Virus record (IMG/VR): IMGVR_UViG_3300008262_000001
Source: a virus
Taxonomy: Duplodnaviria > Caudoviricetes
Strand: one strand, 5' to 3'
Length of the DNA stretch: 64,000 bases
The position numbers were made by a program, and so were the translations under genes. Under the pieces are notes generated by a model, which saw only the letters and a program-made list of their open reading frames with translations, was not told the DNA's origin and did not search any database. Below are positions 4,034-63,834 of the stretch, one piece after another. Every line of letters begins with the position of its first letter. The stretch's first letter is position 1.

Positions 4034-5153
4034 CCGTAACTAATTTTTCTATTGTTATATTGTAAAGCTCCTTAGCTATTTTGAGATAATGTTCACTTCC
4101 TGGTCTACATGATGCAAATAACTGGTATATGCGTTGCTCAAATCTTTCATATGGATTTTTTCCCCACCCAGGTGGATGCCAAAGATGGTAAAGATCAATT
4201 TTGGGATTTTCAAGTGATGTGAAATGATTAAGCTTTTCAACCTTATCCCAGAAAAATTTATCCTCAATAGAATATCCCCAGAAAAAATGAGGATCAAATC
4301 CGCCTACTCTATCGAAAAGATCTCTAGTAAGAGCAATTGATCCTCCAGGAGCTCCATAGACACCTTCTCTGAAATTTGATGTGTTTTTTGTGATTGGTGA
4401 TAAATCTCCTGTTGTAAAATATTCTTTAGTTGAATCTTCGTCCAAATAATTTACCTTTCTACCAGAAAATGCCTGGACAGCTTGGTTTTTTGATAGCTCA
4501 TTTAATAATGAACTATAGAAATTATCGGGAACTAATAGATCGCAATCGTGAAAATGGACATACTGAGACTGAGAAATGGCAACACCCAAATTATGACAGA
4601 TACATTTATTAAATATATTACCATTAGAATTAAGCCAAACATAATGAAAATTTGCAAGATTGGAAAACAAATCTTTATTGAAAATTGGAGCTTTAGAATT
4701 TTCAATAATTACAAATCCTATTTTAATATCTAATTTATCAGCAGAATCTATCAAAGAATTAAGTGTTTTTTCGAGATGTAGCCACCGCCCTCTAAAAGGT
4801 ATTATAGTTACTAAATCATAATTCTCTACCAATCTTGGAATACTTACATTTTTATAAGCGTTTAATACTTCAAGATTTTTTTCGACTGCTAAATCGCTTA
4901 TGTTAAATATATTTGTTTTAGGTAAGGGTTTTAAAAAAGGGAGATTATCATCTTCCCCTTTAGTAGTACTTAAATACAAAAGTTGATTAAAATATTGGGT
5001 TACTGTAGAATTTATCACTACGTTTATTTTTTCATTCGTAAAGTCAATTTCATTTTTATCTGCAACGTTATTCAGATTCTTACTTGGTATAGGTTTGGAC
5101 CTGTTGACGATTCTCCTTTTACCCTCCCTGGTGATTCTTTGTCCGTTATTCAT
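4023..5153 (-). CDS. GT2/GT7-like glycosyltransferase with a basic N-terminal extension
   Basis: IIPFRGR, NKCICHNLG, FHDCDLLV, GGSIALTRDLFDRVGGFDPHFFWGYSIED. Confidence 0.75.
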   Translation of the reverse strand: MNNGQRITREGKRRIVNRSKPIPSKNLNNVADKNEIDFTNEKINVVINSTVTQYFNQLLYLSTTKGEDDNLPFLKPLPKTNIFNISDLAVEKNLEVLNAYKNVSIPRLVENYDLVTIIPFRGRWLHLEKTLNSLIDSADKLDIKIGFVIIENSKAPIFNKDLFSNLANFHYVWLNSNGNIFNKCICHNLGVAISQSQYVHFHDCDLLVPDNFYSSLLNELSKNQAVQAFSGRKVNYLDEDSTKEYFTTGDLSPITKNTSNFREGVYGAPGGSIALTRDLFDRVGGFDPHFFWGYSIEDKFFWDKVEKLNHFTSLENPKIDLYHLWHPPGWGKNPYERFEQRIYQLFASCRPGSEHYLKIAKELYNITIEKLVTDEK

Positions 5154-14320: not shown

Positions 14321-16393
14321 TTATTCCCCAGCAGCCATCATACTTACATCAAGACCTTTTTCTTTCAAGATTTTTTTAACTTGTGGCCAAAGAGTATCAT
14401 CATATAACCATTGCTTAAGTGTGTCACCATCTTTCAAACCCCAAGCATCATTCAAAGCATTTAAATCACCTTGAGTTTTAATTTTCTCTCTGAATAATTT
14501 TTGAACCTGTCCACCTTCGTAAGCTGTATTAATTCCTTTCATATTCATGAGAAGTTCAGAAACCATCTCCTGATATTGGGCATCTGTATATGTCCTTTTC
14601 ATCTTTTCTTCGGTAGCTGCTTGTTTCTGTTTTTCTTTTCCAGTAATTTTTCCTGCTACTGTTCCTTTTCCAACCTCTTTAAGTGAAAATGTTCCTTGAC
14701 CATCTCTGAAAGCAATTTGCCAAGATGATGGATCAGTCTCTTTGCCCTGTGGAATGTTTAGATCTGCATCGAATCTTGTATATCCTGAAACTCCTTTGTT
14801 GAAATTAGAAAAATAAGATGCTGTATAATTTGAATAAAGAAGTAAAGCCTCGTTTGCATCCTCCAAATCTATTTGGACATAAAACGTGTTTCCTGTTGGT
14901 AAAATTTCTACTTTGACTTCCCCACTTCCACCAGCGAAACCACTAAACCATTTCATTGGATTATTTTGAACTTCCGTCTTTAAATAGTCATAAACTTTTT
15001 TAATCTGATCATTGCTTAAGACTTGAACCTCTGTTTCCCCTGAAATTTTATAGGTACCATCTTTGATTTCTTTCAAATACTGCTGACCATACTGAGCAAA
15101 AGCTTTTCTTATAAATTTATTATTGAATTCTCCGCTCTTGTCAAGCTGTATTTTTTTAGCATATTCTGGATCCTTCTCGTTTACATAAACTCTAAAAAAA
15201 TTGCCTTCTTCTTTAGTTTTAAAAGGAGTTGCAGGATTAGCCTCACCTACTGGATCCTTCTTAGCTCCAACTCCTGAAGTTCCGCCACGAGGGACGTTTC
15301 TACCTGACTTAACAGCCTCAACGTCAAATCCCTCGTTTAATTTTTTTTTTATAAAACTATCAAAAGAAACCAATTTCAAATTTGTTCCCAAGGATTCATT
15401 AGTTTCTTTATAATTTAATAGAATTGTGTAAAATTCTGGCGTTATATTTCCAGTTTTATCATTCTCGAGCTCTTTGTAGCTCTTTCTCAATCCATTCTTA
15501 ACATCTTTAATAACATTAGCAGTATTAGCTCTTAATGTAGAACTTACTTTTGGGTAGCTTGCATAAACCTTACTCCAATCACTAGTTCCACTTACTGCAT
15601 CATATTTTTTGAACTTCTCATAGATTAATTTTTTAACCTCTTTAACTACCTCACCGTCTTTTCCTGAATAAGCTTCACCACTCCTTTCTTTAATTGTTGA
15701 AGTTAATCCACCTTGGATAGTTGATCCTGTTGATCCTGTTGCTCCAGATGCTCCTGTAGATCCACTTGCAAGTTGTTGTGCTGCAAGTCTCATTGTATCG
15801 AGAACCTTTACCATTTCATTCTTAGCATCAGAAAATAAAGTTTCAGCGTCTTGCAGCGGTTTTGTAATTGTTGGATATTCAATATCAGCAATCACCTTTT
15901 CTGACTCTTTCGCCCACTCATCACGATAACTTTGTGATGCTTCAGTGAAATCAGTATATAGATCAGAATAGTTATTTCTGAAATTGTTTATCAAAGCTAA
16001 ATCTTTAGTAACTTCTAAAAATTTACCATCTTTCTCCCTTTGATAAACTGCCTCAGCTTTCAGTTTTGCAACACGATCTATAAGTCTAGTAAAGATAGTG
16101 GTGTATTTCTTTCCAGTTTGAGCACCTGCAAGATTTGAAGCTGGGTTTTGTCTTTGTTGTGCATCGTTATAATCAGCAACTATCGAATTTTTAAGAGCTT
16201 CCAACGAATCAATAAAAGGATTCAATTTGAAATCTTTTTCATCGTCCTGGAATTTGTCTTGTCTTCTTTCTTCGCGTCTTTCTGCTCTATCCTCTTTTCT
16301 TTGCTTACTATCTCTTCTTTCCTCCAGATTCATGTTATATGAATCACTTTTCATACTTTCGATTAAGCGAGAGAAATTGTTACTAAGTGCCAT
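14321..16393 (-). CDS. putative virion/head protein: coiled coil, short collagen-like linker, PG-binding-like region and C-terminal annexin-like repeat
   Basis: 690 aa; GSTGASGATGSTG linker; GKDGEVVKEVKKLI; C-terminal ELLMNMKGINT...IKTQGDLNALNDAWG..DGDTLKQWLYDD. Confidence 0.55.
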   Translation of the reverse strand: MALSNNFSRLIESMKSDSYNMNLEERRDSKQRKEDRAERREERRQDKFQDDEKDFKLNPFIDSLEALKNSIVADYNDAQQRQNPASNLAGAQTGKKYTTIFTRLIDRVAKLKAEAVYQREKDGKFLEVTKDLALINNFRNNYSDLYTDFTEASQSYRDEWAKESEKVIADIEYPTITKPLQDAETLFSDAKNEMVKVLDTMRLAAQQLASGSTGASGATGSTGSTIQGGLTSTIKERSGEAYSGKDGEVVKEVKKLIYEKFKKYDAVSGTSDWSKVYASYPKVSSTLRANTANVIKDVKNGLRKSYKELENDKTGNITPEFYTILLNYKETNESLGTNLKLVSFDSFIKKKLNEGFDVEAVKSGRNVPRGGTSGVGAKKDPVGEANPATPFKTKEEGNFFRVYVNEKDPEYAKKIQLDKSGEFNNKFIRKAFAQYGQQYLKEIKDGTYKISGETEVQVLSNDQIKKVYDYLKTEVQNNPMKWFSGFAGGSGEVKVEILPTGNTFYVQIDLEDANEALLLYSNYTASYFSNFNKGVSGYTRFDADLNIPQGKETDPSSWQIAFRDGQGTFSLKEVGKGTVAGKITGKEKQKQAATEEKMKRTYTDAQYQEMVSELLMNMKGINTAYEGGQVQKLFREKIKTQGDLNALNDAWGLKDGDTLKQWLYDDTLWPQVKKILKEKGLDVSMMAAGE

Positions 16394-34936: not shown

Positions 34937-34944
34937 TATATATC
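34937..34944 (-). promoter_or_regulatory. putative late promoter GATATATA
   Basis: 18 nt upstream of the fibre ATG at 34918. Confidence 0.6.
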
Positions 34945-39416: not shown

Positions 39417-41063
39417 TTATGCTTCTGCAGGTGGTGTTTCGGCAGCTGGAGTTTCTGTCGCAGGTGTTTCAGCAGCTGGAGTAGTTTCAGCTGGTGCTGC
39501 TCCCCCTTCTGTTGCTACACCAGAAGCTCCTTGACTTTTTTCAATGTAAGTTTTGTTCATCCTAATGTCATCATAGTTTAAATCCAAGAACCTTTCAATG
39601 AGGAAGTCTTGGTTGAAATATTGTACTTCTTCATCGTTTACATTTTCTTTGATTTCTCCCAATGATGTAACAAAATCGATTTTCTTAATAAGTTGCTCAA
39701 TTTCTCTGGATTCACCAAAAACATTGTCACTTTCGAACTTAACCCCTATTTGACTTCTAAATTCTGGGTCATTCTTAAGGCTTGGAAAATCTAAACACAT
39801 TTGAATCCAAAGGGGTTTAACAACAATCTCTTGGAATATAGACCTTAATCTTGTAACAAACTTTGAAAATCTTACTTCATCTCTTTCAGATCCATCTGCT
39901 GGGATTTTAAAAGGATTTCCAGCCCCAACCCCCCATCTTGCACTAAATCTATTGTAAGGTATTTTTGAATCCTGTCTGAGTTTGTTATAGAAATAAACAA
40001 CAGAATCCATAATGTTCAAGTTTGGCCCTTGAGCATTAATGGTTTCTACTTTAACACTATTCCCTGCTTGTTGAGGAAAAAGATAGTTTTTATAAAACTG
40101 TAAATCTGGTCTTCCATTAATAGCAAGTTCTCCTGATGTTGTATCGAGTTTAATATCCTCCTTGTAAACTGACATAAGCTCGCCAAGTGTCTCTTTTGCC
40201 TTTTGTGGTGACTTACTTCCGATAGGAACTGTCATTTTAATTCTAAACTGCGAGTTCATAACATTCCAGATAATCCTAGAATGCTCCATGATCTTTAACA
40301 AGTTATAAGATCTAATCAATCTTTCCGTATAAGATGTTCTTGATGCAGTGTTGGCCTTAGCATAAGATATGTAAATAACTTGGGCATCCAAAAGTCTTCT
40401 TTGTCTTGTAGTTTCACCATAGTATTGCCACCAGATAGATTCTCTTGTGCCATCGGGTCTTTTTTCAACTGCAGGGGTTAAACTTGTTGCATCGAGTTCT
40501 TTGAATCCCACAATTTCTTTACCATCGCTAGAGTATATGATCTCAAAAGCAAGAAACCCTTCAACTAAAAGTTGTCTGAAATATTGCCAACCAGTTAACC
40601 CATTGGCAAAATTATGAAGTACATAAAGTTTTCTGAAGTTCTTCCTAAGCGCTTGTACCACATCCTCCTTTAAATCCATATTAATCATGCTAGGATGACA
40701 AAAGAAGTTTTTCTCATCGTACACTATGGCTTCATCACAAATAGTGTCTAGAATGTATTCTATTTCAGCATTGAGGGCAAACGTTCTTAAGAAATCTCTT
40801 TTGTAAGGATAGTCTTTATCAAAATAAGCGATATATTTCCTATTAGATGTGTCTTGAGCAGCTATACTATAAATGAAATCTTCGTCATCCTCAGAAAAAC
40901 CGAATCTTTCCCTCATATTGGCTTCAGATATACCAATAGCCATAGAGTCTTGAATCACAAGATCTTTGTAATCCATTCCAAAGCTTCCTAACCCGCTGAG
41001 ATTTTTAATAATCCTCGATATGTTGGGATTGAATTTTCCTAAGTTATCTATAAATCCAGCCAT
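39417..41063 (-). CDS. gp20: portal protein paralogue B (T4 gp20-like)
   Basis: EIEYILDTICDEAIV, FRQLLVEG, LLKIMEHSRII, RDEVRFSKFVTRLR. Confidence 0.88.
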   Translation of the reverse strand: MAGFIDNLGKFNPNISRIIKNLSGLGSFGMDYKDLVIQDSMAIGISEANMRERFGFSEDDEDFIYSIAAQDTSNRKYIAYFDKDYPYKRDFLRTFALNAEIEYILDTICDEAIVYDEKNFFCHPSMINMDLKEDVVQALRKNFRKLYVLHNFANGLTGWQYFRQLLVEGFLAFEIIYSSDGKEIVGFKELDATSLTPAVEKRPDGTRESIWWQYYGETTRQRRLLDAQVIYISYAKANTASRTSYTERLIRSYNLLKIMEHSRIIWNVMNSQFRIKMTVPIGSKSPQKAKETLGELMSVYKEDIKLDTTSGELAINGRPDLQFYKNYLFPQQAGNSVKVETINAQGPNLNIMDSVVYFYNKLRQDSKIPYNRFSARWGVGAGNPFKIPADGSERDEVRFSKFVTRLRSIFQEIVVKPLWIQMCLDFPSLKNDPEFRSQIGVKFESDNVFGESREIEQLIKKIDFVTSLGEIKENVNDEEVQYFNQDFLIERFLDLNYDDIRMNKTYIEKSQGASGVATEGGAAPAETTPAAETPATETPAAETPPAEA

Positions 41064-41065
41064 AG

Positions 41066-42670
41066 TTATAATTTAAATTCTCCTGCAGCTTCTTCAGGTT
41101 TAGTTTCTTCCGTGCCCTCACCCTCTTTTCCTTCTGCTTCTTTTTTCTTCTCAGCAGCTTCTTTCTTAGCTTTTTCGTTATCAATTCTATCTTGAGCTGT
41201 CATTCCAAGATATCTGTCGAGCAAGAATTGTAAACTAAAATATGGTTTACCCTCTGAATTTTTCAAGCCCAATATTTTAATCACTTGATCTTTTCTTGCT
41301 GTCATAATTTCCATCTCCTTGGCTTCTTTAAACATGTTCTCTTTCACGTAATCAAGACCAAATTCGGATTTAATTATATAGTCATTTTTGAGATGCGGAA
41401 AGTCCAAACAAAATTGGACCCAGAGGGGTTTCATTAAGATTTCTTGGTAGATTGACCTTAGCCTGTTTATGAATTTACTAAATCTAATTTCTTCCATATC
41501 CAATCCATCTGCTCCAAAGGAAATAGTTCCTTCAGATCCGCTGTCTTCTCTTCCAAATCTTGAAACTGGAACTTTTGAATCTATCCTTAATTTGTTTGCA
41601 AAATATTGAAGAGCCTTTGTATCAGAAAATGCAGTGGCATCACCAGCTCCTGGTAAAGGCTGAATATCTGGAGTTCCATTAGGAGAAGATGGCATTAAAT
41701 AATTCTTGAAGAATTGTATTTTTGGCCTTCCGTCAACTGTTAACTCACCAGAGTCTGTATTTAATCTTATGTCCTCTTTGTAAATTGACATAAGTTCACC
41801 TAGAGTTTGTTTGGCTTTTTGTGGTGATTTTGTACCTATTGGTACAGTCATAGCCATACGATAAGAGGAATTCATCACGTTCCAAATTATCCTAGTGTGC
41901 TCCATGATTCTAAGCAAATTGAATGACCTTATTAATCTTTCAATGTAGCTTATTCTCGAAGCTGTACCACCACCCTTGGCGTAACTTATATAGATGATTT
42001 GCGAATCGTACAATTTTCTGGTTAAGGAAGGATTATCAGGATATTGAATCCAGATATCAACGAAAGATCCATCAGGCTGAGCTTCTACAGTTGGAACTAA
42101 CGATGCTGCATCTATTTCTTTGAATCCAACTATACTTTTTCCTTTCTTATCGAAAACTATTTCAAAAGCAAGATTTCCCTCTACTAAAAATTTGCGGAAT
42201 AAATGCCAAGCTGAGATATCCTGATTGAATCCAAATAGGTTATAAATTTCTTTATATCTTTTTTGGGTCTGAGCATAGATTTCTTTATCGACATCTTCAT
42301 GTTGCATGAAAGAGAAATAAGCCCAGAAATTCTTATCATCATAAACTATCGATTCATCACATACAGTATCTAATATGAATTCTATTTCCGGATTTTGTGC
42401 AAACCCTTGAACATAATGTCTTTTGTTCTTGAAATCCTTATCAAAATAAGCTATGTATTGTTTTGTTGTGGTATCTGCTTTTCTTATCCCGAAAAGGAAT
42501 GACTCATCCTTTATACCACCTTTCTTAAGAAATTGTGCCTCAGTAACACCAACTGCATAGGAATTTTTTACGACTAGATCTCCATAAGCCATTCCGAAAT
42601 TTCCCACTTTTTTAATATTCTCTACAATAGAGCTAAAAAAAGTTTTTTTGCCATCTGTAAATCCAGCCAT
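41066..42670 (-). CDS. gp20: portal protein paralogue A (T4 gp20-like)
   Basis: PEIEFILDTVCDESIV, FRKFLVEG, LLRIMEHTRII, EEIRFSKFINRLR. Confidence 0.88.
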   Translation of the reverse strand: MAGFTDGKKTFFSSIVENIKKVGNFGMAYGDLVVKNSYAVGVTEAQFLKKGGIKDESFLFGIRKADTTTKQYIAYFDKDFKNKRHYVQGFAQNPEIEFILDTVCDESIVYDDKNFWAYFSFMQHEDVDKEIYAQTQKRYKEIYNLFGFNQDISAWHLFRKFLVEGNLAFEIVFDKKGKSIVGFKEIDAASLVPTVEAQPDGSFVDIWIQYPDNPSLTRKLYDSQIIYISYAKGGGTASRISYIERLIRSFNLLRIMEHTRIIWNVMNSSYRMAMTVPIGTKSPQKAKQTLGELMSIYKEDIRLNTDSGELTVDGRPKIQFFKNYLMPSSPNGTPDIQPLPGAGDATAFSDTKALQYFANKLRIDSKVPVSRFGREDSGSEGTISFGADGLDMEEIRFSKFINRLRSIYQEILMKPLWVQFCLDFPHLKNDYIIKSEFGLDYVKENMFKEAKEMEIMTARKDQVIKILGLKNSEGKPYFSLQFLLDRYLGMTAQDRIDNEKAKKEAAEKKKEAEGKEGEGTEETKPEEAAGEFKL

Positions 42671-43263
42671 TATGCTAGTGAGTTTTTCTTATATATCTCT
42701 TCAATCGGGGTCCCTTCAATTGCCCTGGTATGCAGATATACTATTCTAGTCCAATCTTCGTAGGTAATTTCTTTTGCATCTCTTATTTTCTGTAAATCCC
42801 AAGCTCTATAAGAATTCTTCCAAGGAATTCCTTTCATGATTAAATCCATAGTTGGATAGTCACATTTTAATTGCACCTGTTCTAAAACATCACCTTTTTC
42901 TATCCTTTGAACATTGGTCGATATTTGGGATTCATAGACACTACTTATTCTACTGAAAAAAGCAAGTCTATATTGAGGAGGAATAAGAACTAAATCTAGC
43001 CCACTAAATACAAGTTTATCTTGGGAGTTAAAGAATCCCATAAAAAACAAAAGAGGTCTTCTGTTTACGAATTTCTTTGATTTATCGAGTTTATCGTTGT
43101 AATCAAAGGAATATATTTTACCAACTAGAAAATCAGAAATCTGTAAGGTTGATTTTTTGTCAAGATAATTTTCTCTCCAAAACAGAAATGAAGCATCGGA
43201 TAAGGAAGACAGACCAGAGACACTCAATTGATATTCTTCGAACCTTTCCTGGAAGGATTTCAT
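42670..43263 (-). CDS. gp2: DNA end protector-like protein (T4 gp2-like)
   Basis: GKIYSFDY...RPL...GLDL..IPP..R pattern; adjacent to gp4. Confidence 0.6.
   Translation of the reverse strand: MKSFQERFEEYQLSVSGLSSLSDASFLFWRENYLDKKSTLQISDFLVGKIYSFDYNDKLDKSKKFVNRRPLLFFMGFFNSQDKLVFSGLDLVLIPPQYRLAFFSRISSVYESQISTNVQRIEKGDVLEQVQLKCDYPTMDLIMKGIPWKNSYRAWDLQKIRDAKEITYEDWTRIVYLHTRAIEGTPIEEIYKKNSLA
42690..42697 (-). promoter_or_regulatory. putative late promoter GATATATA
   Basis: 19 nt upstream of the portal A ATG at 42670. Confidence 0.6.
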
Positions 43264-43832: not shown

Positions 43833-44189
43833 TTAGATGTTGTAATTAGAGTTTTCCTCTTTTACTATTCTAGAAAATGGAATGGTCTTGATAGATTTTG
43901 GTGGATGTATCTTTTTCCAACCTTTCTTCATACCGTTGTGTGCAATCTGAGAAATGAAAGCAAAGGGATTATCTGATTTTGCTGGATCGTATCTATTCCA
44001 GTATTTTACTAAATCTTCTAATCCAGCAGATATGCAGTCTTCTCTATCTTCTGTGTCCCTATAAGAGTGAGTCTTAGACATTCCATTAACTATCAAAGTA
44101 AACATTTTTACAGTTTCTGATGTTAATTCCCCTTTCTCTTTGCTTTCTAATAAAGCTCTTTTAAGGTCTTTGTTTTTTACATATATCAT
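43833..44189 (-). CDS. gp55: late-transcription sigma factor (T4 gp55-like)
   Basis: YVKNKDL, EDCISAG, YDPAKSDNPFAFISQI. Confidence 0.75.
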   Translation of the reverse strand: MIYVKNKDLKRALLESKEKGELTSETVKMFTLIVNGMSKTHSYRDTEDREDCISAGLEDLVKYWNRYDPAKSDNPFAFISQIAHNGMKKGWKKIHPPKSIKTIPFSRIVKEENSNYNI

Positions 44190-44431
44190 GATTCGGGCAG
44201 GTTATTTTGGAGCTTAGCGATTTGATCTTCTAAATTTTTTCTTAATTGTTCCAAATTTTCCCTTGAATCTTTAATAATGTCTATTCCAATTTTACCATTT
44301 TCTATACTAGAAGTTTCTAGTTCTTGTATTTTATTCAGACAATCTTTCAAATCGTCCAAAATAAAACTGAGTCTGTTGCCTAATCCATGTTCTGGAGAGG
44401 CCTCAGACTCAGTTATTTTATTAGTGTTTAT
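44186..44431 (-). CDS. 81-codon coiled-coil reading frame with no ATG; candidate -1 frameshift extension of the 770-aa protein
   Basis: Reads INTNKITESEASPEHGLGNRLSFILDDLKDCLNKIQELE...QNNLPES*. It begins in the A10 run and its TGA overlaps the gp55 ATG. Confidence 0.6.
   Translation of the reverse strand: MNTNKITESEASPEHGLGNRLSFILDDLKDCLNKIQELETSSIENGKIGIDIIKDSRENLEQLRKNLEDQIAKLQNNLPES
44365..44414 (-). promoter_or_regulatory. long RNA hairpin (frameshift stimulator and/or terminator)
   Basis: Perfect 11-bp arms AACTGAGTCTG/CAGACTCAGTT with inner GCCT/AGGC and TCCA/TGGA pairs, followed by a U-rich tract. Confidence 0.7.
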
Positions 44432-46740
44432 TTTTTTTTTGCTTTTGGAGCTGAAGAAAGATTTGCTCTCTTTGTATCCTCTACAAATTTCTTACCGTTC
44501 TTCTTGTGATCTCCAGGAGCTGCTGCCAAATTAGCATCTTCTTCATCTTCCATAAACTTCTTAGGCTTTTCTGATTTAGCCTTTGGAGCTTTTTCAATAT
44601 GAGAATTCTTTTGGCTCTCTTTTAAAGCTAGGTTTTGCTTCTTCAAATCGTCAATGAATTGAGCTGCACTCTTAATTTTTGCTGAAGGAGCTGCTGCTAA
44701 ATTTGAATTAGTCAAATCCTGTATGAATTTTTTTCCAGCTGATTGTTTTGCATCAGGAGCAGCTGCCAAAGTTTTGTTCGAAATTGCTGCTTTACCAGTT
44801 TCTATTTTTTTATCTTTCGGAGCTGGAGCTGCGGCCAAATTTGAATTAGACTCATTATCAATAAATGTTGCTGCTGACTTTGGATCATTATCAGGAGCTT
44901 TAGCTAAATGCTTCTTATACATTGAATCGAACTCCTTGTCACCTTGTGACATTTTATTATCTCCAGGTGCTACAGATAAGCTTTGATCTGACTCACTTGT
45001 AAATTCAAGATCCATATCTGGAGTGTTGATGTCATACTGATCAACTTCATCTGCTAAATCTTCGACATCAGAGAAAAAGTATTCACCAGTTTTTCCTTCC
45101 TTAAAAAGAATTGTATAAGTCTTCGAACTTCCATCAACACCAATCACTTTACCTTTTACTCCATTTCTTTTAATTCTAACTTCAGTGTCTAATGGATATC
45201 CCATTTCTTCATTAACTGAAGAAATATCATTTGCCTTCTTCTCAAATCTTTCGATTTCAAGATTAACTTGGTTCCACTTATTTTTCAAAGAGGTAATTTC
45301 GTTTTCTATGCCTTCTTCCAAATTGATTAATTCTGGAGACTGGGCAATAAGAGGATTCTGTTGTTTTACATTTTCGATCTTTCTAAGTTCACCTTCTAAG
45401 ATTTCAATGTTTTTGACAATTTCTTTTTTGTCATTTTTCATAACACTTAAGAAAGCTTCCTCTCCGTTCAAAAACTCAGTCAAAGACTCTGATATATCAA
45501 ACTTGATGAAGTCTTTAATTATGTTAACTGCTTGAGTAGCATTTGACTCATAAATTTTATTGAGTTTCATTGCTGGATTAACAGTTTGAACATAAATTTT
45601 ATCCTTCAATTTGAAAACGTTTGCCTCAACACCTTCGTAAACTTTTGACTTAATTTTCTTTCCGAAATCGATATCTACAATTTCTTCTGAAGCTGAAGCT
45701 ACAAAGATTGCTCTGTTTATCCTGCTATTAGCACCTTCTAAAAGATTTCCAGTAGAAACGCTAACTGCTAAAGGTAAATCGCTCTCACTGATTTTCTTTC
45801 CGTCGTAATAAATTGTTTTCTCTTTGTTTTCAAAAACAATTTCAACTTTGTTTTTACCTATATTCAAGGTAATTTTGTTATTGTCTATGTTAATATCTCT
45901 ATCACCAACCATTACAGCTTTTTGTTGAAAATCAACAGGAACTTCCTCCATTTGACATTCAAATATTGTTTGTGTAGTCTCTTCTATTTTGAAGTATTTT
46001 CCACTAGAGAAGAATACCACTCCACTTTCAGTAACAAGCAAAGGTGAATATATGTTAGAAACCTCACAAATTGAATTGTCTGCTCCTACATAGAATTTAT
46101 TACTAACCTTATTTTCGTGAATTGATAAAAAGCTAACGAGATTTCTTACCATTGGATTAAATCCAAATCTTTTAAGTCCATGCAAAAGCGAATCTGTAGT
46201 TCTTTTCTCTGAAACCAACCAATTTTTCATAGTGGATGTTGCATCAGAAAATATGTCTCTGCCTGGAGCATTTTTAATTGACTCGTATGTCTTTATTACC
46301 TCTATTTCTCTTCTTCTATTTTCAAAAATGTGAGTTACGTTTTCTAAAACAGATGCAGCTGATCCTTCCCACGAAAAAGAGCTAAGTTCTTGAATAAATC
46401 CTTCTATCAAAAAAGCTTCTGGAATATTTTTAGAAATTAATAGACCTTCAAATTTCTCCAACATAATTTTACCTGCTGGAAGATCATAAAGACTAGAATT
46501 TTTAAGTGCAGATACTGTATTCAATAAACCAAAACTAAAGATTGTGTCCTCAGTTGCTTTGGGTGAAAAATTAGTATCTTTTGATTCTTTAATCATTTGC
46601 GAAGTTGATCCATTTAAAAATGAAGATGCAACAGGAGCTTTTTGAGCATCTAATCCAGCCCATTCTCTAAGAGAATCTGCAGCATTTTTGGAAGTCTCCA
46701 TATTTAATTTGTTAATTTCTGGATTAATATTTTTTTCCAT
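44428..46740 (-). CDS. large putative virion protein with a coiled coil, a KOW/SH3-like module and C-terminal 23-aa repeats
   Basis: 770 aa; EVRIKRNGVKGKVIGVD; NLAAAP repeats; late promoter upstream. Confidence 0.7.
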   Translation of the reverse strand: MEKNINPEINKLNMETSKNAADSLREWAGLDAQKAPVASSFLNGSTSQMIKESKDTNFSPKATEDTIFSFGLLNTVSALKNSSLYDLPAGKIMLEKFEGLLISKNIPEAFLIEGFIQELSSFSWEGSAASVLENVTHIFENRRREIEVIKTYESIKNAPGRDIFSDATSTMKNWLVSEKRTTDSLLHGLKRFGFNPMVRNLVSFLSIHENKVSNKFYVGADNSICEVSNIYSPLLVTESGVVFFSSGKYFKIEETTQTIFECQMEEVPVDFQQKAVMVGDRDINIDNNKITLNIGKNKVEIVFENKEKTIYYDGKKISESDLPLAVSVSTGNLLEGANSRINRAIFVASASEEIVDIDFGKKIKSKVYEGVEANVFKLKDKIYVQTVNPAMKLNKIYESNATQAVNIIKDFIKFDISESLTEFLNGEEAFLSVMKNDKKEIVKNIEILEGELRKIENVKQQNPLIAQSPELINLEEGIENEITSLKNKWNQVNLEIERFEKKANDISSVNEEMGYPLDTEVRIKRNGVKGKVIGVDGSSKTYTILFKEGKTGEYFFSDVEDLADEVDQYDINTPDMDLEFTSESDQSLSVAPGDNKMSQGDKEFDSMYKKHLAKAPDNDPKSAATFIDNESNSNLAAAPAPKDKKIETGKAAISNKTLAAAPDAKQSAGKKFIQDLTNSNLAAAPSAKIKSAAQFIDDLKKQNLALKESQKNSHIEKAPKAKSEKPKKFMEDEEDANLAAAPGDHKKNGKKFVEDTKRANLSSAPKAKKK
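44440..44990 (-). repeat. coding repeat of about 8 units, about 23 aa each (K.F.DD...NLAAAP)
   Basis: LSVAP, LAKAP, LAAAP x4 and LSSAP, mostly spaced 23 residues apart. Confidence 0.8.
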
Positions 46741-46759: not shown

Positions 46760-46767
46760 TATATATC
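46760..46767 (-). promoter_or_regulatory. putative late promoter GATATATA
   Basis: 19 nt upstream of the ATG at 46740. Confidence 0.6.
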
Positions 46768-58790: not shown

Positions 58791-60383
58791 ATGGAACCAG
58801 ATTTATTTTCAGAATACACAGCTATAAAAAAAGGGACAAAAAAAGCAAACGCTTTTTCTAAATTGATTAAAAACAATGAGGAACTAAAAAAAGAACTGTA
58901 TTCCAAATCCCTTGACATATCAGAGCTTTATTCTAATCCGAGTGAAGTACAAAGATTGAAATTTGTATTTGAGGACAAAAAAATCAAATTTTGTGAATGT
59001 GGTAAACCAAGATCTTGGAGAAACTTCAAAAAGGGCTATAATAAGACATGCGGGGATAAAGAATGCGTTTCAAGGGAAAACAATAGGTCAGTTAAAGAAT
59101 TTTACCAAAATAAATACGGAGTAGACCATTTGTTTCAAACTGAAACATTTAAGACAAAATTAAAGGATACTTTCATATCAAAGTTTGGAGTTGATAACCC
59201 TGGAAAGAACGAGGAGGTAAAAAATAAGATCAAAAAAACAAATTTGGAAAAATTTGGAGAAACAAGCTGGTTAAAAGTAGAAGAAAATAAAAAAAGAATC
59301 TCTGAAAGTATTATAGAAAATAATTCTAAAGATAGAATCTCTAAAATTGAAAAATTTAATATACCAATAGAAATAAAAGATTTTAACACTAAAGAAGTTA
59401 AAATACAATGTAATATTTGCAGCAATTCTTCAGTCTCATCAACTTCATACTTTAATAAGAAAATATCAGCTGGACAAAATCCGTGCTTAAAATGCAGTCC
59501 CCCTCTTTATTCTGAATCTAGAGCAGAAAATGAACTTAGTGAGTACCTCAAAGAAATATACGCTTTGGAAATAATAACTCACGATAGAAAAATATGCGAA
59601 GGTAAGGAAATTGATTTCTTTTTACCTGAATTAAATGTAGGTTTTGAATTCCATGGGATCTGGTGGCATAGTGAGATCTTTAAGGGGAAAAATGGAAATC
59701 TTAATAAGAAAAATATTATTGAGAATAAGGGGATAAAAATTTACCACATTTGGGAGGACAATTGGCTCCTAAAAAAAGAAATCATAAAAAGCAGAATCTT
59801 GAATGCTTTAGGTCTTTGTAAAAAAATATATGCAAGAAAATGTAATATCCTAAAAATTACTGCCAGAGAAGAAAAGGATTTTCTTGATACTAATCACATA
59901 CAAGGATATGTTCCATCACGAATCAAGCTGGGACTTTATTATGATTCAGAATTAGTCTCAATTATGACTTTTGGGGCAAAAAGGAAATCTTTGGGTCAAA
60001 GATCAAAAGAGGGAGAATATGAGTTATTAAGATTCTGTAATAAATTAGGAACGACCGTAGTAGGAGGTGCATCTAAACTTTTCAATAAATTTATCAAAGA
60101 ATTTGATCCGGATCTAGTTATTTCTTATCAAGACAATTCTTGGTATACTGGAAATCTCTACCAAAATATAGGATTTGATTTTATATCTAAAAGCAAGCCT
60201 AATTACTATTGGTGTAAGAGTAATATTAGATACCATAGATTCAATTTCAGAAAAGATAAATTAATTAAAGACGGTTTCGATAGAACTAAAACTGAGGATA
60301 TTATTATGACTGAGAGAGGTTATTATAAATTATGGGATTTTGGTAATTTGAAATGGGAATACAAAAAAAAAGGCTTAGATTAA
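58791..60383 (+). mobile_element. free-standing Hef-like homing endonuclease: Zn ribbons, PD-(D/E)XK nuclease and a Mom-like GNAT domain
   Basis: CECG...CGDKEC, [YF]GV repeats, CNIC..CLKC, EIDFFLP...FEFHGIWWHS, IWEDNW, then HIQG..LGLY...ELLRFC..GGASKL..ISYQD..GNLYQNIGF. Antisense between the sheath and tube genes. Confidence 0.75.
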
Positions 60384-60396
60384 TCTAAGCCTTTTT
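60363..60396. terminator. bidirectional intrinsic terminator
   Basis: AAAAAGGCTTAGAT-ta-ATCTAAGCCTTTTT between the convergent endonuclease and sheath genes. Confidence 0.85.
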
Positions 60397-60412
60397 CTTC
60401 TAATTTATATTT

Positions 60413-63826: not shown

Positions 63827-63834
63827 TATATATC
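63827..63834 (-). promoter_or_regulatory. putative late promoter GATATATA; second copy at 63870-63877
   Basis: 18 nt upstream of the sheath ATG at 63808. Confidence 0.6.

Follow-up and report, generated by a model that had tools for sequence, protein, structure and literature searches.

We examined the junction between two genes in a 64,000-nucleotide (nt) stretch of viral DNA (IMG/VR record IMGVR_UViG_3300008262_000001; hereafter the window). The upstream gene codes for a protein of 770 amino acids (aa), and its 3' end reads GCA AAA AAA AAA TAA, with a run of ten A's placed directly before the stop codon. The downstream gene codes for a late sigma factor resembling gp55 of phage T4. Between them lies an open reading frame (ORF) in the -1 frame of the 770-aa gene that has no start codon of its own, and this ORF contains a stem-loop followed by a U tract. 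Table 1 lists these features together with two promoter-like motifs. All of them are on the minus strand, and coordinates refer to the window. The initial annotation of this DNA had pointed out the A run, the TAA stop, the open 81-codon frame and the overlap of that frame with the sigma gene, and we found each of them where it had placed them. Comparison with relatives leads us to conclude that the A run is very probably a conserved programmed recoding site, because the run and the stop are kept, the -1 frame is open and lacks a start, and the run and the frame were lost jointly in one clade.

Table 1. Features of the cassette at the junction (window coordinates; bp, base pairs)
Feature	Coordinates	Strand	Description
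770-aa gene (0-frame product)	44428..46740	-	ORF; includes the TAA stop at 44430-44428
A10 run, very probable recoding site	44431..44440	-	A_AAA_AAA heptamer in the 0 frame; relatives have A9+G or A9+C
81-codon -1-frame extension ORF without its own start codon	44189..44431	-	Predicted to encode a disordered linker and a helical hairpin
Conserved stem-loop	44365..44414	-	11-bp outer stem (44414-44404 with 44375-44365) and two inner 4-bp stems
U tract, TTTTATTTT / UUUUAUUUU	44358..44366	-	Directly 3' of the stem
ATGA overlap of the -1 ORF stop and the gp55-like start	44186..44189	-	TGA at 44188-44186; ATG at 44189
118-aa gp55-like late sigma factor gene	43833..44189	-	Matches PHROG 234 and Pfam Sigma70_r2
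GATATATA motif, candidate late-type promoter of the 770-aa gene	46760..46767	-	19 nt upstream of the ATG
TGGTAAAAT, speculative candidate extended -10 element	44289..44297	-	Inside the extension ORF, ~100 nt 5' of the sigma ATG

Relatives of the junction were collected by searching with the 770-aa protein and two of its distant homologues. The searches returned 76 loci, and removing duplicates left 40 distinct junctions, 37 of which carry the -1 frame. The sample is diverse, with pairwise identities of the large protein ranging from 37 to 98% (median 58%) among the 34 junctions that have a full-length gene. In all 37 distinct junctions with the -1 frame, the large gene ends with NCA AAA AAA AAG/C/A and is followed directly by TAA or TAG. 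The last codon before the stop is AAG in 33 of them, AAC in three and AAA in the window. The run is therefore A10 in the window and A9 in the 36 distinct relatives; what sets the window apart is a G-to-A substitution at unchanged length. Each junction contains a slippery heptamer of the X_XXY_YYZ type in the phase of the 0 frame (A_AAA_AAA in the window, A_AAA_AAG in 33 and A_AAA_AAC in three). The stop adjoins the run without exception, and the change from TAA to TAG preserves it.

Conservation of the run extends to individual nucleotides. The codon before the Lys codons is ACA in 25 junctions, TCA in eight and GCA in four, which leaves the wobble A invariant while the amino acid varies among Thr, Ser and Ala. 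Both AAA Lys codons of the run are likewise invariant. We looked for comparable columns elsewhere in the gene as a control. None of the 79 four-fold degenerate columns was invariant at the nucleotide level, and neither was any of the seven columns with an invariant Lys (AAA:AAG 164:74).

Homopolymers are error-prone in both sequencing and replication, and the junction might reflect an artefact or variation in the DNA itself. The assembly could lack one A, in which case the two frames would be truly fused, or the tract could be phase-variable. More than 60 contigs from many samples and assemblers are nevertheless all unfused and agree on the length of the run (A9+N or A10), and the window departs from them by a substitution and not by length. 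Contigs in the Logan collection from four studies, two of them independent, are identical across the A10 run and show no indel, although rare variants are invisible in contigs. We rejected the missing A, which the initial annotation had listed as an alternative, on the grounds that the layout is colinear with that of more than 60 relatives and that contigs from independent studies are identical across the run. An artefact or a phase-variable tract is extremely unlikely.

The -1 frame downstream of the run behaves like coding sequence. Translation from position 44431 gives 81 sense codons (INTNK...NNLPES) before the TGA, and each of the 37 distinct junctions has 80-86 open codons in this frame. 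Between the run and the sigma ATG, stops make up 5 of 3046 codons in the -1 frame, compared with 363 of 3009 in the 0 frame and 355 of 3010 in the +1 frame. Even in the poorly conserved first nine codons the -1 frame has no stops, while the other frames have 30 and 64. The first -1 codon is GTA, CTA or ATA (Val, Leu or Ile), so the G/C/A variation that follows the run is conservative in this frame. Conserved residues of the extension vary freely at synonymous positions: G21 is encoded by four Gly codons, L31 by five Leu codons, and K50 by AAA and AAG in a ratio of 17:16. These patterns indicate that the extension is a real protein under protein-level selection. They agree with the proposal of the initial annotation that a programmed shift into the -1 frame adds a helical C-terminal tail, which is now supported by both the conserved run and the coding character of the frame.

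The extension could instead be a separate gene that starts at a TTG (a 57-aa ORF, also suggested in the initial annotation) or at a non-canonical codon, with the A run representing a Lys-rich C-terminus in an AT-rich genome. Gene callers do annotate ORFs of 45-74 aa at this locus, the L041 clade has an ATG at -1 codon 8, and an Ile codon (ATA or ATT) is common around codons 5-7. No start is conserved, however. The TTG of the window occurs in only two of the 37 sequences. In 26 of them no ATG, GTG or TTG precedes the conserved G-N-x-L motif, and in the rest the position of the start varies. The residues V/L/I - N/K - T... and the open frame are conserved from the run itself, which is upstream of the TTG, and the first nine -1 codons contain no stops. 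The nucleotide invariance of the run is unmatched elsewhere in the large gene, and the ORF decayed once the run was lost. We rejected the TTG-start gene, and we consider a separate gene of any kind very unlikely.

We looked for natural fusions of the two frames. The 120 matches listed of 147 homologue clusters contained proteins of 508-785 aa (full-length ~740-785) and none of ~850 aa. An exhaustive search with the extension returned 45-74-aa ORFs only, with arbitrary called starts. Gene callers either overlook the extension or report it as a short ORF whose start is arbitrary, so metagenomic annotations of this family are all wrong at the locus. AlphaFold2 (AF2) models the extension as an antiparallel helical hairpin (helices 17-44 and 50-76) that follows a disordered 11-residue linker, with a predicted local distance difference test score (pLDDT) of 79.6. 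A fold search of the PDB with this model found only generic Rop-like or ferritin-like helical hairpins. A match of the extension to PHROG 8000 (E 0.0065) was discarded because it was found in one of the 37 members. The predicted complex of the extension with the gp55-like protein scored 0.01, a value that counts neither for nor against binding.

The end of the -1 frame is closely tied to the start of the sigma gene. Its stop and the sigma ATG form ATGA in the main clade and TAATG in a second clade. The L059-L064 lineages (five distinct junctions) leave a gap of 8-18 nt between the end of the -1 ORF and the ATG. The stop/start overlap described in the initial annotation is thus a conserved feature of the junction.

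The run and the intact extension are missing in two cases. In the L049-L054 clade, whose large protein is 48% identical to that of the window, the gene ends with AAG AAG AGT AAG TAA and the A run has been lost. The -1 frame is open for only 8-24 codons in this clade, and recognizable pieces of the extension (..LGNLETS.., ..KNNFQS..) are spread over different frames. Joint loss of the run and the extension is what would be predicted if the extension depends on the run. The hairpin and the U tract persist in this clade, with compensatory changes. The second case is LR756500.1 (L077, 232151-236749), a 462-kb record of an uncultured phage that encodes a 617-aa distant homologue with 25% identity to the 770-aa protein. 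A gp55-like gene begins 21 nt after this homologue, and the run, the extension and the hairpin are all absent. This layout indicates that the synteny of the large gene and the sigma gene is older than the recoding cassette.

We analyzed the hairpin downstream of the run by folding and by covariation. Both the minimum free energy (MFE) structure and the centroid structure from RNAfold consist of exactly the 11-bp stem and two inner 4-bp stems that had been proposed. The MFE of -31 kcal/mol compares with -13.4 +/- 2.9 for 200 shuffled sequences (z -6.0), none of which folded as well. An outer AAUAA/UUAUU extension of the stem, also proposed, was not reproduced: the outer helix of the MFE structure is a different one, weak and 4 bp long, and the centroid lacks an outer helix. 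A stem-loop of 12-16 bp occupies the same place in all 40 distinct sequences, although its stem sequence is wholly different between clades (UGAGUCUGUUAC.., GAGUUCGUUGCC.., AAUCCGCUUCUG..). In an alignment built without reference to structure, 90.9% of the cells in 16 aligned pairs were paired, compared with 36-49% in controls slid by 1-3 columns. Eleven pairs changed on both sides (102 cells), a covariation score reached by none of 500 shuffles. All 37 junctions combine the run, its stop, an open -1 frame and the hairpin, a recurrence beyond what chance would give. A search of Rfam with positions 44100-44600 gave no family match.

The hairpin is followed by a U-rich tail, with a mean of 6.5 T in the 10 nt 3' of the stem across the 40 sequences. 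This U-rich stretch is kept though the peptide it encodes differs by clade (NFVL, LFLF, LSFF), without any synonymous change in its codons (TTT 29/29, GTT 15/15). A stable stem-loop and a U tract downstream of a stop codon are the marks of an intrinsic (Rho-independent) terminator, and both are present here. A simple terminator scanner missed the hairpin because its loop limit was 8 nt. The covarying stem and its U-rich tail fit an intrinsic terminator or a 3'-end stabilizer, in line with the terminator-like role first suggested for them.

The initial annotation had viewed the heptamer, a short spacer and the hairpin as a classic frameshift architecture, in which the hairpin would act as a stimulator like that of dnaX. 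The hairpin is indeed strong, conserved and covarying, and it lies downstream of a slippery heptamer. Stimulatory structures usually begin 5-9 nt downstream, where they meet the entrance of the ribosome. Here the stem begins 16 nt past the A run (13 nt past the stop) in the window and 16-28 nt past it (13-25 nt past the stop) in relatives, well beyond the usual distance, and the spacing varies between clades. The hairpin is also followed by a U tract and is fully kept in the clade from which the run and the -1 ORF have disappeared. The variable spacing, the U's and the persistence of the hairpin in a recoding-free clade point to a terminator and not a frameshift stimulator. The classic architecture did not hold up, and a stimulatory role for the hairpin is improbable. 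We also noticed a weaker second hairpin on the minus strand after the U tract (44334-44360; UAGACGAUUU GAA AGAUUGUCUA, with G-U pairs). It is present in many main-clade relatives and absent from several members of that clade and from the other clades; this patchy occurrence suggests that it is probably not essential.

Either RNA polymerase or the ribosome could slip at the A run. We slightly favor RNA polymerase, because none of the nine A's varies, not even the one at a wobble position where the encoded amino acid does. The base that follows the run is free (G, C or A), and a homopolymeric run of at least about nine A's, conserved as a run, is what characterizes sites of programmed transcriptional slippage. 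Nine A or T residues is the run length for efficient slippage by bacterial RNA polymerase in vivo, and the RNA-DNA hybrid measures 9-10 bp (PMC5009743). Transcriptional slippage had been raised as an alternative in the initial annotation, and it is the only one of the alternatives named there that we retain. In our model, the majority of expression from the 770-aa late gene would end at the TAA that adjoins the run. RNA polymerase would slip on the 9-10 A:T pairs, which is the length of the RNA-DNA hybrid, and add one A to some transcripts. Normal translation of these slipped transcripts would read the extension. The minority product would be an isoform of ~851 aa (...AKKK-INTNK...) that carries 81 extra residues, folded as a short linker and an antiparallel helical hairpin. 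The stem-loop and U tract, embedded in the extension ORF, would serve as the intrinsic terminator (or 3'-end stabilizer) of the late transcript. The comparison shows conservation, a coding signature, covariation and the joint loss of run and extension in one clade; we infer from it which machine slips, how efficient recoding is, that transcripts end at the hairpin and any influence on the sigma gene.

Several observations weigh against this model. The stop invariably adjoins the run, which is predicted by a stop-stimulated slip in the ribosomal P site and is not needed for slippage by polymerase. Heptamers ending in AAG, AAC and AAA are all proven -1 frameshift motifs in E. coli insertion sequence (IS) elements (PMC4066793). 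Joint loss of the run and the extension happened in one evolutionary event only. In L041, and in no other clade, the U tract is weak, and the call of a terminator or stabilizer was made from sequence features only. Finally, the window contains a second A10 run, described below, at which slippage must be either tolerated or inefficient.

A -1 frameshift by the ribosome on A_AAA_AAG (A_AAA_AAA in the window) is a possible main or only route to the same 851-aa isoform, and we hold it to be the less probable one. The Lys tRNA would slip back by one base, possibly helped because the adjoining stop is decoded slowly, and no canonical stimulator downstream would take part. All 37 sequences have the heptamer in the correct phase for the 0 frame, and the commonest last codon is AAG (33/37). 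A_AAA_AAG is the dnaX-type motif, among the most shift-prone in E. coli. A ribosomal shift requires only seven bases, however, and the two extra upstream A's are invariant in a way that no control column resembles. There is no structure at the usual distance of 5-9 nt; the hairpin lies 16-28 nt past the heptamer at variable spacing. We found no conserved element upstream, and structure 5' of the run was unremarkable (mean z -1.0). The junction thus has neither a stimulatory structure ~5-9 nt downstream nor an upstream Shine-Dalgarno-like element, one or other of which is expected of a frameshift cassette. IS1 and some other proven -1 cases have no stimulator, so this lack weakens the membership of the junction in that class without ending it. 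Slippage by polymerase and slippage by the ribosome could also act together. The A9G, A9C and A10 variants and the clade in which the run was erased make up a natural system in which the two mechanisms could be separated.

The second A10 run is also on the minus strand, at 15341-15350, in the middle of an ORF of 690 aa (14321..16393), where it is read in frame as ..TTT ATA AAA AAA AAA TTA AAC... Gain or loss of one A there leads to a stop within 1-6 codons, so slippage would give truncated products. This run may be another recoding site or a sign that slippage at A10 is tolerated. A pattern scan did not find relatives of this 690-aa gene. An A9 run on the plus strand was rejected as a recoding site. 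It lies at the end of a 530-aa ORF (60363-60400), next to the palindrome GGCTTAGAT TAA TCTAAGCC and a T tract, and is the A tract of an element that looks like a bidirectional terminator shared with a convergent 1131-aa gene.

The 118-aa product of the downstream gene was assigned by its matches to PHROG 234, 'late sigma transcription factor' (E 1.2e-15; the match spans positions 25-127 of the 181 in the profile), and to Pfam Sigma70_r2 (27.5 bits, cut-off 24). T4 gp55 is longer, at 185 aa. Identity of the gp55-like protein across clades is 75-94%. We searched for promoters that such a factor might use. The motif GATATATA occurs 17 times in the window, compared with 3.05 expected copies (5.6-fold), a count reached in none of 100 shuffles. 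Fifteen of the 17 copies lie 4-90 nt (mode 18-19) upstream of an ATG-initiated ORF on the same strand; examples are at 46760-46767, 42690-42697, 34937-34944 and 63827-63834. The copy before the 770-aa gene, proposed as a late promoter in the initial annotation, is thus one instance of a genuinely over-represented promoter-like motif, and a copy stands in the same place in all clades of relatives. From enrichment and position, GATATATA is likely to be the late promoter of this phage lineage and is a candidate for that role. The T4 late promoter TATAAATA is not enriched in the window (seven copies against 6.4 expected), nor are the candidate gp55 promoter words TWGAAACTTCT and TGNTAAAAT.

No copy of GATATATA lies upstream of the gp55-like gene, and a variant, GAATATATA, lies 3' of it and upstream of the gp4-like gene. 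Between the terminator-like hairpin and the next late-type motif, the sigma gene thus stands alone. The extension ORF contains a further element, TGGTAAAAT, that spells T-A-R-R-A-T from NNT, AAR or AGA, and ATH codons in all 37 sequences. Its third-position T is invariant in all 37, across GGT, AGT and CAT codons. The sigma gene may have its early or middle promoter here, although the pattern is not enriched in the window. A block of ~60 nt that includes the -10-like element is also conserved in the clade in which the region is non-coding (L049, at about 4930-4990).

The initial annotation had gone further and linked recoding to expression of the sigma factor. Under this proposal, which could be built on either mechanism of slippage, recoding would gate the terminator and act as a metered positive-feedback valve through which the late promoter supplies the late sigma factor. 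If a ribosome stopped at the TAA, the hairpin would stay free and transcription would end. A ribosome in the -1 frame would melt the hairpin, carry RNA polymerase through and reach the sigma start at the ATGA overlap. Several aspects of the layout agree with this logic. The stem begins 13-25 nt past the stop, just beyond the footprint of a terminating ribosome, and lies wholly within the -1 ORF. Nearly all relatives have the -1 stop overlapping or abutting the sigma ATG, and a late-type motif precedes the 770-aa gene in all clades. With the sigma gene alone up to the next late-type motif and without such a motif itself, the idea is geometrically reasonable. The clade without recoding, however, retains terminator and sigma gene in an unchanged layout, which indicates that expression of the sigma gene does not need recoding. 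In LR756500.1 the sigma gene follows the large gene directly, with no extension or hairpin between them. A sigma factor that starts late transcription also needs a prior promoter, which the -10-like element in the extension ORF could supply, and a simple leaky terminator explains the layout equally well. We consider the recoding-gated terminator rather unlikely. If it were true, a small, fixed part of the late transcription across a structural-type gene would feed back to make sigma factor. The placement of a terminator inside a trans-frame ORF that abuts the sigma gene makes attenuation by frame change directly testable.

The window comes from an uncultured freshwater T4-related phage lineage, with contigs of up to ~150-340 kb. 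Its G+C content is 33-36%, and its DNA is present in lake and other freshwater metagenomes. None of the sequencing runs listed as containing the stretch was an RNA run, and three metatranscriptome runs from the same study contained next to none of its sequence words, which has no bearing on expression. Neighboring genes match T4 gp4, gp2 and two gp20-like portal paralogues. The two portal genes are adjacent and intact (39417-42670, minus strand; 548 and 534 aa). Both match PHROG 213 and Pfam Portal_T4, and the pair is kept in all related loci that reach that far. We found no cultured relative in the phage collection, where the unannotated record LR756500.1 was the single match.

The 770-aa protein has no match to a Pfam or PHROG family. 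In the AF2 model (pLDDT 64), the N-terminus is helical and the middle is rich in beta structure; a coiled coil spans 421-501, a small beta barrel spans 520-561, and residues 566-770 form a disordered tail with repeats. Foldseek found nothing significant in the PDB except a Tudor/SH3-like match of the small beta barrel. A fold search of BFVD matched only uncharacterized myovirus proteins, including those of the Tenacibaculum phages PTm1 and pT24, and an Atlas feature search gave only a low-scoring hypothetical viral cluster. With no informative family or fold match, the label 'virion protein' given to this product in the initial annotation stays an assumption. The disordered C-terminal 200 residues (44428-45050) contain about seven copies of a 25-30-residue repeat with the pattern ..KKF[IV][DE]D....NLAAAP.., the last of which runs into the Lys codons of the A run.

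We compared the cassette to known recoding and attenuation systems. A search of the literature found no earlier description of this recoding site. Programmed transcriptional slippage in Thermus thermophilus dnaX, IS elements and the Shigella type III secretion genes spa13 and mxiE, at runs of about nine A/T, shares with the cassette a homopolymer of hybrid length (9-10) inside a coding sequence and a share of products that continues in another frame. The slippage-made C-terminal extension of Shigella spa13 overlaps the beginning of spa32, whose expression it affects (PMC5009743), an arrangement that resembles the ATGA overlap with the sigma gene. The cassette differs from these systems in that it belongs to a late phage gene, its 0-frame stop adjoins the run, a terminator-like hairpin lies within the trans-frame ORF, and slippage is proposed from DNA sequence.

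Ribosomal frameshifting in E. coli dnaX and in IS911/IS1-type elements shares identical heptamers in the correct phase and, as in the cassette, a conserved -1 ORF. In dnaX, a hairpin ~6 nt downstream acts with an upstream Shine-Dalgarno-like stimulator, whereas the cassette has a hairpin at a variable distance of 16-28 nt and no upstream element. The conserved stretch in the cassette is nine A's, not seven. The shifted product of dnaX is also the shorter one, unlike that of the cassette. Phage T7 gene 10A/10B and lambda G/GT share a late phage gene with a minority -1 shift near the stop and a C-terminal extension. The T7 10B extension is ~53 aa; a transcription terminator lies after the gene, and its region is reported to affect T7 frameshifting (PMC5009743). 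In contrast to T7 gene 10, the slip site of the cassette is a poly-A run, the terminator-like hairpin sits within the extension ORF instead of beyond it, the extension runs up to the start codon of a sigma gene, and the protein is not a recognized capsid protein or tail chaperone.

Attenuation in the pyrBI and trp leaders shares the placement of a terminator where a translating ribosome would block the hairpin and a ribosome released upstream would not. In the cassette, the decision would be made by a change of frame at the end of a 770-codon gene and not by stalling in a short leader, and this scheme is one we infer entirely. An attenuator operated by frame change would, if true, represent a regulatory logic not described so far. 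The recoding site itself is a very well supported and phylogenetically deep addition, in an unannotated gene family, to the short list of such sites known from large T4-related phages.

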